Of a DNA stretch of 44,710 nucleotides, positions 19,872 to 44,710 are shown in pieces (the stretch's first letter is position 1; the number at the start of each line of letters is the position of its first letter). The stretch is from a virus. The notes beneath the pieces are model-generated. The model was not told where the DNA came from, ran no database searches, and saw nothing but the letters and a program-made list of their open reading frames with translations. Location of the stretch: the UHGV virus genome UHGV-0061377, one strand, 5' to 3'. A program made the translations under genes and the position numbers.

Positions 19872-20165
19872 TTATTGTGAGCAATACACACGCGCTTCCA
19901 GCGGAGTATAAATGCCTAAAGTAATAAAACCGAGCAATCCATTTACGAATGTTTGCTGGGTTTCTGTTTTAACAACATTTTCTGCACCACCACAAATTTT
20001 TGCTGCATCGACAGTTTTCTTCTGCCCAATTCCCGAAACGAAGAAATGATGGGTGATGGTTTCCTTTGGTGTTACTGCTGTAGGTTTGTTTCCAACAGTA
20101 AACGTCTGTTGAGCACATCCTGTAATAAGCATTGCCAGAGCGGCAGAAAACAACATTTTTTTCAT
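19872..20165 (-). CDS. bor: Bor lipoprotein (serum-resistance-associated)
   Basis: 97 aa from the internal ATG (MKKMLFSAALAMLITGCAQQTFTV...), near-identical to lambda Bor. Confidence 0.92.
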   Translation of the reverse strand: MKKMLFSAALAMLITGCAQQTFTVGNKPTAVTPKETITHHFFVSGIGQKKTVDAAKICGGAENVVKTETQQTFVNGLLGFITLGIYTPLEARVYCSQ

Positions 20166-20645
20166 CTTATTATCCTGCATTGTTAAAAACGGCAGAATCC
20201 TATGTGACAACAATTAAACGATAGTTAAATGGATTGATGAAAATTAAAACTACACAGGTGGGCTCAGACTATTGGAGGAAGTTGGGGACACTCAGAATCC
20301 TGTGGAATGAAATAAACCGGTCTATCCGTCCATTACCCTTTTAGCTGCGCTGTATCGTCGCCGTATTCCCGCATTAACCATGACCGTAGCCCGACGGGGA
20401 ATTCCTTCTGCGTGAGTGTGCGGGAATAATTAAAAACGATGCACACCGGGTTTTTACCGCGTTAATGATTCGCGGGTTTATCCCGGTGCGATGGTGGAAG
20501 AAACAGGAAGCTGTATTACAGAAAGTGCTACTACTGTATCCCGATGCGATGTATGTAATGTGAGTCAGATAATGGCACAGGATGTGGTGATGTGGCAGTC
20601 TGGAACACAGGATATATTGTCAGAATAAGACCCGTAGGAATAAAA

Positions 20646-41325: not shown

Positions 41326-41352
41326 AGCCCGCCGGTTCTGGCGGGCTTTTTT
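41326..41352 (+). terminator. Intrinsic terminator after lom
   Basis: gcccgcc-ggttct-ggcgggc hairpin followed by tttttt. Confidence 0.8.
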
Positions 41353-41363
41353 GTGGGGGGAAT

Positions 41364-44300
41364 ATGGCAGTAAAGATTTCAGGTGTACTGAAAGACGGTG
41401 CAGGTAAACCGGTACAGAACTGCACAATCCAGCTGAAAGCAAAACGTAACAGCACCACGGTGGTGGTGAACACGGTGGCATCTGAAAATCCGGATGAAGC
41501 CGGGCGTTACAGCATGGACGTTGAGTACGGTCAGTACAGCGTTATTCTGTTGGTGGAAGGATTCCCGCCGTCACATGCCGGGACCATCACCGTGTATGAA
41601 GATTCCCGACCCGGTACGCTGAATGATTTTCTCGGTGCCATGACGGAGGATGATGCCCGTCCGGAGGCACTGCGCCGCTTTGAACTGATGGTGGAAGAGG
41701 TGGCGCGTAACGCGTCCGCAGTGGCACAGAACACGGCAGCCGCAAAGAAGTCAGCCAGCGATGCCAGCACATCGGCCAGTGAGGCGGCAACCTATGCGAC
41801 TGATGCTGCAGACTCAGCACGCGCAGCCAGCACGTCAGCCGGACAGGCCGCGTCGTCGGCTCAGTCAGCGTCTTCCAGCGCAGGAACGGCATCAACAAAG
41901 GCTACTGAAGCATCAAAAAGTGCTGCCGCTGCAGAGTCCTCAAAAAGCGCGGAGGCTACCAGTGCCGGTGCGGCGAAAACGTCAGAAACGAATGCTGCAG
42001 CGTCACAAAAATCTGCAGCCACTTCTGCATCCACCGCGACCACGAAAGCGTCAGAAGCTGCCACCTCAGCCCGGGATGCGGCGGCCTCAAAAGAGGCAGC
42101 GAAATCATCAGAAACGAGCGCAGCCTCGAGCGCCAGTAGTGCAGCCTCTTCGGCAACGGCGGCAGGAAATTCCGCGAAGGCCGCAAAAACGTCTGAGACG
42201 AATGCGGATAACAGCGCACAGGCGGCAGCAGACTCACAAACTGCATCAGCAAACTCCGCGACAGCAGTCAAAAAATCAGAAACCAACGCGAAAAATAGCG
42301 AGGCAGCAGCAAAGAGCAGCGAAACCAACGCTAAAGCCAGCGAAACTAATGCTAAATCCAGTGAAACAAACGCGGCGAAATCTGCGGCGGACGCACTTAA
42401 TTATCGCAACCAGGCCCAGGGTATTGTTGGTACTAACATCGGTTTGGGATCATCACCGCGTGATTGCTCTGACATCTCAGGAAATCCATCAGGTTATATT
42501 GGCTTTATGCGCATCATGGAAAATGCCACGGGTTTTCCTTCGATTGCATCGGGTGAGGGTAATTTAACTGGCTTTATAAGTCAGGTTGACGGATCGCCAG
42601 CTTATACAGGTATTTTCCAGGGGTGGAACACCAGATCCATTTACACCTATCGCTGGTTAACTAGTATAGGCCCGCAATGGACACGCCACGCTCGCAAAGA
42701 TGAAGTCAGTCGATTATTTCAAAACGAATCGACGACTCGTATATATGGCCCAACTAACGATCGTTTCTTTGAAATCCATACTAACGGGAGTTGGGGGGTT
42801 TATGATTCTTCTTCTGGACAATGGTCTCCGTTAGGTTTAGCCCAGGGCGGTACTGGTGGAAGAACTATCGAGCAAGCACGTGCGAACTTGCGGGTAATGT
42901 ATGAGCAAAAAGCTGGTCTTGCTAATACTGACCTAAACACCCTTACCGGTGAATATTCTGGTTTCTATCAACAACCAGCGAGCGCTTACGCAACAGAAGA
43001 ATTAAATTACCCAATCGGTCTGGCGGGCGCTTTAATAGTGCTCCAAACGAGAGCCAACACTGCTTCTTCCTGCGTTCAGGTGTACTACCCTTATAATAAT
43101 CCGGGAATTACTTATAGACGAATATATGAAGGAGGTAGCGGTACCTGGTCTGAATGGAAGAGAGATGTATCAACAGAAAGGGTTGAAGAGGGAAAAGAAA
43201 CAACTTACGTATATTCTACGTATTCTTCAGGCGCACCACGCTTACAGGTTTCCAAATCTGGTTTGTGGGGTTGTCATAATGGCACTGGCTGGTTGCCATT
43301 AGCTGTTGGGCAAGGAGGTACAGGTGCGACAACAGTAGAAGATGCGCGAAACAACTTAAGTCTTGGCGAAAGTAGCGCAGTTAAATTTAAAAACCTTACT
43401 TTAACCGAAGCGCTCGACACGACATTAGGACTGCTTACAAAAACAGGACGAGACTGGAACACGCAGCATACTGATAACATTAATAAATTTATACCAATTG
43501 CAGGCAGTACAAACGGCCCGGCAGGTTCTATGGTTCTTGGCGGCATTCATGTTCAATTTAGTAAAAATTATGCTGTGCAGTTCGGAGGCCGCAATTCCGG
43601 TTTTTGGGGAAGAACAGTTGAAAACGGAACGACGCAGGAATGGAAGAAATTACTAACAGTAGACGATCTAAATTCATCCACCGATCTTGCTGTCAGGTCA
43701 TTAACCACATCTAACCCGTTAAAATCTGGCGGAGGGCGGATTGATGTCCTTGGAAGCACGTCAGACTATAGCAAAATGGATTGCTTTGTACGTGGGTTTG
43801 ATAGCACCGGTAATTCTCTCGCGTGGGCGTTGGGTTCATCAGTCGGCGTAAGTAAGATGCTGTCGCTAAAAAATTTCTTTAGCGGAGCTGAGATACTGCT
43901 AAATGGTAATGACGGCGCGGTTCAACTCAAAACAGGTGCTGTTAACGGGGCTAAAGCGCAGGCGCTCACTATCAACAAGGATGAGGTTAACTCAACTGTT
44001 GATTTAGCTCTTACAAAACAAACAGGGACTGGCAATCGTTTTGTTTTACAGAACTTAGGTAATACAGAACTATCATTTGCTGTCAAGGTGTGGGGTTCAG
44101 GTGATCGACAAAACGTTTTTGAGGTTGGAACGTCTGCCGCGTATCTGTTTTATGCTCAAAAAACATCGTCAGGTCAGCTGTTTGATGTAAACGGTGCTAT
44201 TAACTGTACAACACTGAATCAGTTATCAGACCGCGAGCTGAAAGACAATATTCAGATTATCAGTGACGCAACCGAAGCTATCCGTAAAATGAACGGGTAC

Positions 44301-44660
44301 ACCTACACACTTAAGGAAAACGGACTACCTTACGCTGGTGTTATTGCACAGGAAGCAATGGAGGCAATACCGGAAGCGGTAGGCTCATTCACTCATTACG
44401 GTAAAGAGTTGCAGGGACCAACGGTTGACGGCAATGAATTACGTGAAGAAACACGTTATCTGAATGTTGACTACGCCGCCGTGACTGGCTTACTTATTCA
44501 GGTCGCCCGTGAAACAGATGATCGCGTTACCGCGCTGGAAGAGGAAAATACAACGTTACGTGAAAATCTGGCAACAGCAGGCACCCGGATCACCACTCTG
44601 GAAAATCAGGTAAGCGAACTGGTTGCACTTGTCCGGCAGTTAACAGAAAGCGAACATTGA
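41364..44660 (+). CDS. stf: Side tail fiber protein with lambda Stf-like N-terminus, Ala/Ser-rich low-complexity repeats, and a C-terminal intramolecular-chaperone (peptidase S74-like) domain
   Basis: 1098 aa. N-terminus MAVKISGVLKDGAGKPVQNCTIQLKA... is lambda Stf-like. Central SETNA-type repeats. C-terminal ~130 aa resembles the self-cleaving chaperone domain of endosialidase and T5-type fibers, ending in a coiled coil. Confidence 0.85.
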   Translation: MAVKISGVLKDGAGKPVQNCTIQLKAKRNSTTVVVNTVASENPDEAGRYSMDVEYGQYSVILLVEGFPPSHAGTITVYEDSRPGTLNDFLGAMTEDDARPEALRRFELMVEEVARNASAVAQNTAAAKKSASDASTSASEAATYATDAADSARAASTSAGQAASSAQSASSSAGTASTKATEASKSAAAAESSKSAEATSAGAAKTSETNAAASQKSAATSASTATTKASEAATSARDAAASKEAAKSSETSAASSASSAASSATAAGNSAKAAKTSETNADNSAQAAADSQTASANSATAVKKSETNAKNSEAAAKSSETNAKASETNAKSSETNAAKSAADALNYRNQAQGIVGTNIGLGSSPRDCSDISGNPSGYIGFMRIMENATGFPSIASGEGNLTGFISQVDGSPAYTGIFQGWNTRSIYTYRWLTSIGPQWTRHARKDEVSRLFQNESTTRIYGPTNDRFFEIHTNGSWGVYDSSSGQWSPLGLAQGGTGGRTIEQARANLRVMYEQKAGLANTDLNTLTGEYSGFYQQPASAYATEELNYPIGLAGALIVLQTRANTASSCVQVYYPYNNPGITYRRIYEGGSGTWSEWKRDVSTERVEEGKETTYVYSTYSSGAPRLQVSKSGLWGCHNGTGWLPLAVGQGGTGATTVEDARNNLSLGESSAVKFKNLTLTEALDTTLGLLTKTGRDWNTQHTDNINKFIPIAGSTNGPAGSMVLGGIHVQFSKNYAVQFGGRNSGFWGRTVENGTTQEWKKLLTVDDLNSSTDLAVRSLTTSNPLKSGGGRIDVLGSTSDYSKMDCFVRGFDSTGNSLAWALGSSVGVSKMLSLKNFFSGAEILLNGNDGAVQLKTGAVNGAKAQALTINKDEVNSTVDLALTKQTGTGNRFVLQNLGNTELSFAVKVWGSGDRQNVFEVGTSAAYLFYAQKTSSGQLFDVNGAINCTTLNQLSDRELKDNIQIISDATEAIRKMNGYTYTLKENGLPYAGVIAQEAMEAIPEAVGSFTHYGKELQGPTVDGNELREETRYLNVDYAAVTGLLIQVARETDDRVTALEEENTTLRENLATAGTRITTLENQVSELVALVRQLTESEH

Positions 44661-44710
44661 TATCCTTCAAGCCCTGAAGGAGGCTGTTCCTGGTACGTTC
44701 AGACTGTTGT

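Follow-up and report, generated by a model that had tools for sequence, protein, structure and literature searches.

A mosaic lambda-type side tail fibre with a T5-type distal part and a predicted self-cleaving Peptidase_S74 chaperone next to a truncated tfa

We analysed a 44,710-nt stretch of the virus genome UHGV-0061377 (hereafter the window) and found close to its end the gene stf, which encodes a side tail fibre precursor of 1098 aa (115.3 kDa) from an ATG start, at exactly the position and on the strand that an earlier note on this DNA had given. The gene order is J-lom-stf, as in lambda, and tail-fibre PHROG 6578 was matched along the full length of stf. The equivalent of the terminator-like site between lom and stf carries a rho-independent terminator annotation in phage mEp460; late transcription has to pass this hairpin. 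The genome of Escherichia coli A36 is near-identical to the stf region (one mismatch in 3347 nt) and provided the sequence past the window end; elsewhere A36 is not fully colinear with the window. All other morphogenesis genes of this near-identical prophage are annotated as intact in RefSeq, and stf encodes a mosaic side tail fibre of a lambdoid prophage that appears to be intact. The locus has the following features:

41326–41347, + strand: GC hairpin with T run, terminator-like, between lom and stf, 16 nt upstream of the stf ATG
41364–44660, + strand: stf, side tail fibre precursor
41364–41765, + strand: virion-attachment domain phage_tail_N (PF08400), aa 1–134
41700–42422, + strand: Ala/Ser/Thr-rich heptad-repeat shaft with SETNA units, aa 113–353
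42186–42206, + strand: left mosaic breakpoint at KTSETNA, aa 275–281
42317–42373, + strand: tandem repeat of 21 nt (one heptad) in 2.7 copies
42423–42896, + strand: first distal domain, aa 354–511, ending in GGTGGRTIEQARANL
42897–43382, + strand: exchangeable knob-like domain, aa 512–673, ending in GGTGATTVEDARNNL
43383–44225, + strand: distal tip of the mature fibre, presumed receptor-binding region, aa 674–954
44226–44657, + strand: Peptidase_S74 intramolecular chaperone (PF13884), aa 955–1098 (144 aa)
44226–44243, + strand: SDRELK, with predicted scissile and nucleophilic Ser955 and general-base Lys960
44472–44657, + strand: C-terminal long helix, presumed trimerising coiled coil, aa 1037–1098
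44661–44710, + strand: 36-nt spacer (AAGGAGG at 44677–44683) and first 14 nt (from 44697) of a truncated tfa

The N-terminus is of lambda type, as had been proposed from the sequence: PF08400 was matched with an E-value of 4.5e-72, above the curated cutoff, aa 1–94 hardly differ from the lambda Stf fragment of known structure, 9e7m (aa 1–94, E 2.6e-51), and aa 1–284 share 86% identity with lambda Stf (orf-401). Low-complexity Ala/Ser/Thr repeats with recurring SETNA units, which the earlier note had also described, were recovered in the adjoining shaft. Ala, Ser and Thr make up 50–78% of residues in aa 101–350 vs 18–34% elsewhere in Stf, SETNA occurs six times (aa 207, 277, 305, 319, 326, and 333), and the tandem repeat found by TRF encodes SETNAKA, SETNAKS, and SETNAAK. 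Repetition is far above chance, because residue autocorrelation over aa 113–353 peaks at lags of 7, 14, 21, and 28 with z = 8–11 vs shuffles. A single-sequence AF2 model placed the shaft in two long helices (mean pLDDT 82), and we read aa 113–353 as an alpha-helical coiled coil that would be trimeric. The repeats are no peculiarity of this fibre, since lambda Stf has the same heptad shaft. A special low-complexity insertion was accordingly rejected as an explanation of the tract, which lambda Stf carries at 86% identity; it is the ancestral Stf shaft, common to lambda and T5-like fibres.

Lambda-type DNA identity (about 86%) stops at gene nt 842 (window position 42205), where sliding identity falls from 0.87 to 0.40, and is followed by sequence resembling T5-type L-shaped fibres. 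Thirteen of the 20 phage matches listed end at query nt 836–842, or 15 if NC_ duplicates and Turner/Kati/Chlobot (842) are counted. Past aa 284, Stf has no similarity to lambda Stf and lacks the C-terminal region of the latter (orf-314). Residues 204–1070 are instead collinear with the fibre YP_009202114.1 of the Tequintavirus slur09 at 49–62% identity, the gene of which lies directly after the L-shaped-fibre collar gene. The C-terminal 420 aa reach 62% identity to this L-shaped-fibre ortholog, which bears out at family level the likeness to T5 L-shaped fibres claimed earlier. The T5-type collar-attaching N-terminus is absent, the Stf N-terminus being lambda-type and the slur09 alignment not starting before query aa 204. 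We rejected a recent transfer out of a T5-like phage, as DNA identity to slur09 is only 66–72% and no word longer than 20 nt is shared. The earlier note had further proposed a swapped receptor-binding module; the swap stands, its restriction to the tip does not, for the non-lambda part comprises all sequence distal to aa 281. The swapped part is everything beyond this residue and not just a receptor-binding module.

Two globular domains and the distal tip lie between shaft and chaperone. The first distal domain is common to mEp460 and the slur09 L-shaped fibre. The second matches the R-pyocin fibre knob 6cl5 over aa 525–670 (E 8.7e-6) and is swapped in mEp460 for a longer, unrelated insert of 265 aa with 25% identity. 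The tip shares 62% identity with slur09, and its last ~50 aa resemble a shaft module of T4 gp34 (4uxe, 5nxf; E about 1e-7). Pfam searches with the isolated middle and tip segments gave nothing significant, self-BLAST gave no significant sign that the two GGTG-motif domains are duplicates of each other, and an NCBIfam scan of the Stf protein returned no family at E ≤ 0.1. By analogy with T5 pb1 and DT57C, receptor binding is presumed to reside in aa 674–954. T5-like LtfA and LtfB carry pfam13884, and their host specificity maps immediately upstream of the chaperone. A receptor specificity differing from the lambda type is plausible, and T5-like lateral fibres suggest that a surface glycan (O-antigen or LPS) most likely serves as the receptor.

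The C-terminal self-chaperone claimed in the earlier note was recovered with its S74 likeness and a coiled-coil-like tail, at a size of 144 aa and not the ~130 aa given there. PF13884 matched aa 955–1006 over profile positions 1–57 of 58 (E 2.2e-13; 50.7 bits vs a gathering cutoff of 22), above the Pfam curated threshold, and the C-terminal peptide quoted in the note lies within this match (aa 958–1006). The Ser955-x4-Lys960 dyad is in place and, like the SDR.LK motif, invariant in 27 homologs of 58–93% identity; SDRELK aligns to SDRRIK of S16 gp37, and the same Ser-x4-Lys spacing occurs in endoNF (S911/K916), MyRF (S587/K592), and T5 pb1 (S1264/K1269). Against the PDB, a profile of the homologs reached the S16 gp37 chaperone 6f45 (E 4e-9) and, weakly, MyRF (E 0.07). 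T5 pb1, endoNF, and GA-1 gp12 were not reached there by phmmer or by the homolog profile, and kinship to these three is therefore drawn from the Pfam match and the common motif. The domain evolves under purifying selection: dN/dS is 0.05–0.22 in six pairwise comparisons, within a gene in which every segment is well below 1, and the chaperone is 88–95% identical even beside replaced tips. An AF2 monomer model of aa 674–1098, built on a 27-sequence alignment, had a mean pLDDT of 41.7, too low to confirm the chaperone fold of a helical bundle with beta tentacles; it ends in a long helix (positions 364–421 of the modelled segment) with pLDDT 59–82 confined to the last ~40 residues, and the same region gave weak coiled-coil-type matches to APC_N_CC and Csm1_N (Pfam, aa 1055–1096) and to P22 gp26. 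Cleavage at Leu954|Ser955, predicted by analogy with the family, would yield a fragment of 16.0 kDa and a mature fibre of 99.4 kDa.

Inspection of the sequence beyond the window, which the earlier note had called for, revealed a pseudogene stub and no tfa gene in the near-identical A36; this outcome and the S74 match both favour the reading given in the note. The stub begins within the last 14 nt of the window, continues past its end, and equals lambda Tfa aa 147–191 of 194; it matches Caudo_TAP (PF02413) positions 87–131 of 131 and has neither a start codon nor the fibre-binding N-terminal domain. RefSeq labels it a pseudogene with missing N-terminus and, in the near-identical prophage, annotates neither another tfa nor, among the structural genes, a further pseudogene. 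A tblastn search of the window with lambda Tfa found nothing (best E 1.5), and there is no Tfa-like coding capacity elsewhere in the window. The stub alone is likewise present in E. coli A36, three other E. coli chromosomes, and phages mEp460, Ayreon, and PhiR70_1. On the right-hand side no donor junction was recognised, as the 3' flanks of slur09 and mEp044 have no DNA in common with the spacer after the stf stop. In 7 of 7 loci the stub is in the same reading frame as stf with a single TGA between them; in six of these it is open to the natural Tfa C-terminus, a perfect AAGGAGG lies upstream, and in strain 14EC029 it is frameshifted. Low-level readthrough of the TGA or separate initiation might supply a fibre or peptide with the conserved Tfa trimerisation helix as a second assembly element beside S74, in which case the stub would not be inert, an idea to which we give the faintest chance of all those considered here. 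More soberly, the locus may be regarded as a genomic fossil, in which chaperoning by Tfa in trans was replaced by S74 in cis at the same site.

Fibres combining PF08400 and PF13884 without an annotated tfa are encoded by mEp460, Ayreon, and PhiR70_1; the architecture is already known and this gene adds one more member. It was found in 90 of 5426 complete E. coli genomes, these being the records that cover at least 80% of the query among 5138 E. coli records that mostly match it partially. RefSeq names the relatives 'S74 family peptidase' or 'pyocin knob domain-containing S74 family peptidase'. Our search of the searchable literature found no experiments on this protein or any lambda-type S74 fibre and no published account of the combination of lambda Stf with S74; mentions of mEp460 were confined to prophage typing.

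Taken together, we consider it very probable that this fibre joins a lambda-type attachment domain and shaft to a T5-type distal part, carries a self-cleaving S74 chaperone in cis, and needs no Tfa. Residues 1–134 plug the fibre into the tail tip. At the other end, the C-terminal coiled coil of the chaperone would align three nascent chains, as family members suggest, and this alignment would nucleate folding of the intertwined tip, starting at its C-terminal end. Only in the properly folded trimer would Ser955 be placed beside Lys960; the Leu954|Ser955 bond would then be cut, the 16-kDa chaperone would depart, and the receptor-binding end of the 99-kDa fibre would be unmasked. Tfa would be unnecessary because folding help is built into the fibre, and the ancestral tfa has shrunk to a non-coding 3' stub, which still forms the cassette's right-hand end. 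The analysis shows the domain content, the conserved motif, purifying selection, the lack of tfa, and the mosaic boundaries; we infer that the fibre trimerises, is cleaved, and does without Tfa in vivo, and also the class of its receptor.

The fibre might still need a Tfa supplied in trans by another prophage, with the S74 domain accessory or vestigial. Such a Tfa would commonly be on hand, given that stf-related loci number 2 in the median E. coli genome and as many as 14, and the existence of the tfa-less phages mEp460 and Ayreon does not disprove the dependence: side fibres are dispensable for plaque formation in lambda-type phages, and the viability of these two is therefore no proof of Tfa-free assembly. 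However, Tfa uses its variable N-terminal domain to bind a specific fibre tip, while its C-terminal domain is conserved, and there is no reason why a Tfa of lambda type should fit the tip of a T5-type fibre. Purifying selection on the chaperone and its invariant catalytic motif also argue against this dependence, T5-like phages with a homologous fibre have no annotated Tfa beside the fibre gene, and the T5 pb1 polypeptide includes its own chaperone, which is removed auto-proteolytically upon expression and folding, before purification. We therefore rate dependence on Tfa as very unlikely. The least unlikely alternative, though improbable in itself, is that the S74 domain folds the fibre yet stays uncleaved as a distal cap. 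The oxyanion-hole Arg and Asp partners described for T5 pb1 could indeed not be assigned in the Stf sequence, but both dyad residues and the SDR.LK motif are invariant, and a retained chaperone would probably inactivate the fibre, because in T5 pb1 cleavage unmasks O-antigen binding and the uncleaved chaperone masks it.

Even less credible than dependence on Tfa in trans is that stf is decaying within a defective prophage and yields no functional fibre. That the adjacent tfa is a pseudogene, that many of its relatives in databases are fragmentary or fused (324–736 aa), and that even laboratory lambda has a frameshifted stf would agree with decay. This is countered by the intact reading frame of 1098 aa with dN/dS below 1 in each of its parts, by intact full-length copies in the 90 complete genomes and in isolated phages, and by the intact annotation of the other morphogenesis genes in the near-identical prophage.

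A self-chaperoned, T5-type fibre on a lambda-type base, the reading we prefer, is a tidy but unremarkable case of module exchange between tail fibres. Mosaic fibres and S74 chaperones are both well established, and current understanding is unchanged by this one. Side-fibre tips determine the strains to which a temperate phage or a lambda-based delivery particle adsorbs, and this stf allele represents a natural lambda-compatible fibre that should work without a helper gene. Chimeric lambda fibres have already been engineered, and the exchange points at aa 281, the two GGTG...AR.NL motifs, and the conserved chaperone could guide their design. The tfa stub records the evolutionary interchangeability of cis and trans fibre chaperones.

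Among known systems, mEp460 (AFM76057.1, JQ182728) is like our locus in its J-lom-stf order, PF08400 and PF13884 domains, identity of 87% over aa 1–511 and 85% over aa 674–1098, and identical post-stop spacer and tfa stub, but has its insert in place of the knob domain; Ayreon and PhiR70_1 differ in their tips, with 58% and about 22% identity to this fibre. Lambda Stf/Tfa (Ur-lambda) shares the locus, the N-terminal 284 aa including most of the Ala/Ser shaft, and the tfa-derived sequence downstream, whereas here Tfa is cut to its last ~45 codons, an S74 domain with a putative folding role is present in cis, and the orf-314-like distal region that the downstream cognate Tfa folds in lambda is missing. 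The slur09 L-shaped fibre is collinear in SETNA-type heptad shaft, two GGTG-motif domains, tip, and S74 chaperone; T5-like L-shaped fibres differ in carrying the T5 collar-binding N-terminus. T5 pb1, the family prototype, has the C-terminal chaperone, the coiled-coil core, and the Ser-x4-Lys autocleavage mechanism that our fibre presumably shares, but sequence comparison detects no similarity of its bullet-shaped tip or its chaperone to this fibre. A direct pairwise sequence match to endoNF was not found. EndoNF (K1F) and MyRF share with Stf the Pfam family, the Ser-x4-Lys at the domain start, and a C-terminal helical trimerisation element (presumed in Stf), and differ in the client, which is a tailspike beta-helix enzyme or a transcription factor there and a fibre tip here.

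The side tail fibre gene (stf) occupies exactly the interval placed by the earlier note, 41364–44660 on the + strand, and encodes a protein of 1098 aa that matches the tail-fibre PHROG 6578 over its whole length. The lambda Stf-like N-terminus proposed there is evident from a Pfam match to phage_tail_N at aa 1–134 (E = 4.5e-72) and from near-identity of aa 1–94 to the solved lambda Stf N-terminal fragment (9e7m), and the suggested search of the C-terminus for the intramolecular chaperone Peptidase_S74 gave a match at aa 955–1006 (E = 2.2e-13, 50.7 bits; gathering score 22). Residues ~900–950 resemble the repeated shaft module of the T4 proximal long tail fibre gp34, and this stretch (..VWGS..RQNVFEVGTSAAYLFYAQKTS.GQLFDVNGAI) lies directly upstream of the predicted cleavage site.

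Features of the fibre gene (residues of Stf, other positions of the window)
aa 1–134, + strand: lambda-type anchor, phage_tail_N (Pfam)
42317–42373, + strand: 21-nt tandem repeat (repeat detection)
aa 495–509 and 651–665 (42846–42890 and 43314–43358), + strand: copies of the motif GGTG..T...AR.NL, before two breakpoints
aa 525–670, + strand: R-pyocin-fibre knob-like domain (6cl5, E = 8.7e-6, PDB sequence search)
aa ~900–950 (about 44061–44213), + strand: T4 gp34-like shaft module (4uxe and 5nxf, E about 1e-7)
aa 204–575: 49% identity to the slur09 fibre
aa 442–674: 53% identity to the slur09 fibre
aa 652–1070: 62% identity to the slur09 fibre

Ala, Ser and Thr make up 50–78% of aa 101–350 compared with 18–34% elsewhere, and Stf holds six SETNA copies. 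The tract noticed earlier is thus present but not peculiar to this fibre, as lambda orf-401 (Stf) is 86% identical over aa 1–284, including the tract and two KTSETNA units. Mere low complexity was ruled out by autocorrelation at heptad lags, with peaks at 7, 14, 21 and 28 across aa 113–353 (z = 8–11 versus shuffles). Because of this periodicity and an AF2 single-sequence model of aa 100–360 with two long helices (mean pLDDT 82), we read the tract as about 34 heptads of a putative, presumably trimeric, coiled-coil shaft.

Lambda-type DNA identity (about 86%) has a sharp end at gene nt 842 (window 42205), in the final codon of the second KTSETNA unit; the majority of listed phage stf genes lose their match at this point, and E. 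coli matches are likewise mostly partial. Past this point, Stf is colinear with the 1272-aa fibre of the T5-like Tequintavirus slur09, whose gene lies directly 3' of that for a 'collar protein for L-shaped tail fibre attachment' and which is therefore, by position, the ortholog of T5 pb1. The module replacement suggested by the earlier note is borne out, but with this colinearity it extends past the receptor-binding tip to the entire distal three-quarters. DNA identity to slur09 is only 66–72%, which argues for shared module ancestry and rules out recent transfer from a T5-like phage. Altogether 201 phage records hold relatives of tip plus chaperone, among them Salmonella T5-like phages, rV5-like myoviruses and small siphoviruses.

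Comparison with six homologs showed that segments 350–511, 512–673 and 674–954 were exchanged independently, framed by conserved ends: at the left the lambda-type anchor with its shaft, at the right the chaperone and a tfa stub. The boundaries 511/512 and 673/674 come just behind two copies of a repeated motif, GGTGGRTIEQARANL and GGTGATTVEDARNNL respectively. The GGTG..T...AR.NL motif, also found in slur09 (three copies), mEp460, PhiR70_1 and mEp044, has the look of a conserved linker between domains at which recombination also takes place. In some database proteins (P0060/P0065, P0067/P0080/P0093 and P0009) the same tip and S74 module is fused to unrelated N-termini, the partners being a glucosyltransferase-like PHROG 842, a terminase GpA domain and Ail/Lom; these fusions are probably deletion-derived, from degraded prophages.

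The S74 match starts at Ser955, within LNQL|SDRELK. The family is marked by a Ser-x4-Lys dyad (endoNF S911/K916, MyRF S587/K592, T5 pb1 S1264/K1269), a cut immediately before the Ser and a C-terminal trimeric coiled coil. In 27 homologs (58–93% identity) S955, K960 and the entire SDR.LK motif are invariant, and SDRELK aligns with SDRRIK of the S16 gp37 chaperone (profile E = 4e-9). With a dN/dS of 0.05–0.22 (six comparisons) and 88–95% identity retained where adjoining tips are swapped, the domain is a selected, portable module. Sequence assigns the Stf C-terminus to the S74 family, fold membership being unconfirmed by the AF2 monomer model of tip and chaperone (pLDDT 41.7), and cleavage is predicted to yield a mature fibre of 99.4 kDa (aa 1–954) and a chaperone of 16.0 kDa.

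The earlier note had allowed for a gene of the separate lambda-type assembly chaperone, Tfa, beyond the window. Lambda Tfa gave no tblastn match in the window (best E 1.5), and sequence past 44710 was read from relatives in place of the source genome itself, above all the prophage of E. coli A36 (one mismatch in 3347 nt). There, from 48 nt after the stf stop, lies only a pseudogene, labelled in RefSeq 'tail fiber assembly protein, missing N-terminus', which corresponds to lambda Tfa aa 147–191 of 194 (78% identity) and Caudo_TAP profile positions 87–131 of 131. Tfa consists of a variable, fibre-binding N-terminal domain and a conserved helical C-terminal domain, and as judged from these alignments the stub retains only part of the latter. 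No other tfa is annotated in the A36 prophage, and its remaining morphogenesis genes are annotated as intact. The same spacer and stub stand after the S74-type fibres of the isolated phages mEp460, Ayreon and PhiR70_1, and recur in three further chromosomes (stub frameshifted in one) with different downstream contexts (sitD, a capsid fragment, pinQ); stf(S74) and the tfa stub therefore travel as one cassette. The pair of results that the earlier note named as refuting it, no S74 match together with tfa directly after stf, is contradicted in both its parts. The stub is in the stf frame with one TGA between in 7/7 loci (window 44658–44710, continuing at 9295–9504 of L001, numbered as window minus 35363), is open to the natural Tfa C-terminus in six of them, and is accompanied by a perfect AAGGAGG at window 44677–44683. 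Frame and AAGGAGG are probably coincidence plus a recombination arm; translation of the stub by TGA readthrough or re-initiation is a remote possibility.

The T5 pb1 chaperone is autoproteolytically removed on folding, O-antigen binding being exposed only once it is gone, and in LtfA/LtfB of T5-like phages host specificity lies just upstream of the pfam13884 (S74) domain. Because of this analogy, we propose that the chaperone coiled coil would put three chains in register, that tip folding would start at the C-terminal end, and that Ser955/Lys960 would cut Leu954|Ser955 once the trimer has folded, whereupon the chaperone would dissociate and the freed tip could bind a surface glycan, a receptor class we infer purely by analogy. 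Plaque formation proceeds without side fibres, and the viability of tfa-less phages is therefore suggestive, not proof.

Among related fibres, a switch between a chaperone within the fibre itself and a Tfa encoded on its own has been described. The combined architecture of the present fibre was already deposited with mEp460 in 2012, annotated pfam08400 (phage_tail_N); relatives appear in RefSeq as 'pyocin knob domain-containing S74 family peptidase', and a near-full-length copy is present in 90 of 5426 complete E. coli genomes. We found no characterisation of any lambda-type S74 fibre in the literature searched. The window fibre differs from that of mEp460 chiefly in the knob domain at its middle.

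Colinearity of the window with the A36 genome (NZ_CP028739.1) is imperfect, the integrase being offset by 459 bp, and at Stf residue 197 the window has E where A36 has A; its origin is therefore another strain or assembly, closely related to A36. Past the fibre cassette, the near-identical genome carries the iron/manganese uptake genes sitDCBA and after them a truncated icd-like fragment, and the prophage looks to be integrated at icd with sitABCD as cargo by its right end. An autotransporter and an alpha/beta hydrolase gene, apparent virulence-type cargo, are flanked by the replication genes on one side and the nin region on the other, and a small TonB-family gene is found about 0.5 kb from iss, on the terminase side.

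Apparent cargo and neighbouring loci of the prophage
10766–14674, + strand: inverse autotransporter, intimin/invasin-type, 1302 aa (A36 prophage annotation)
14711–15754, − strand: alpha/beta hydrolase (A36 prophage annotation)
~19872–20213, − strand: iss, increased serum survival lipoprotein, bor-like moron, adjoining the lysis cassette
L001 10302–13751 and 14663–14830, beyond the right window end: sitDCBA/icd-like region
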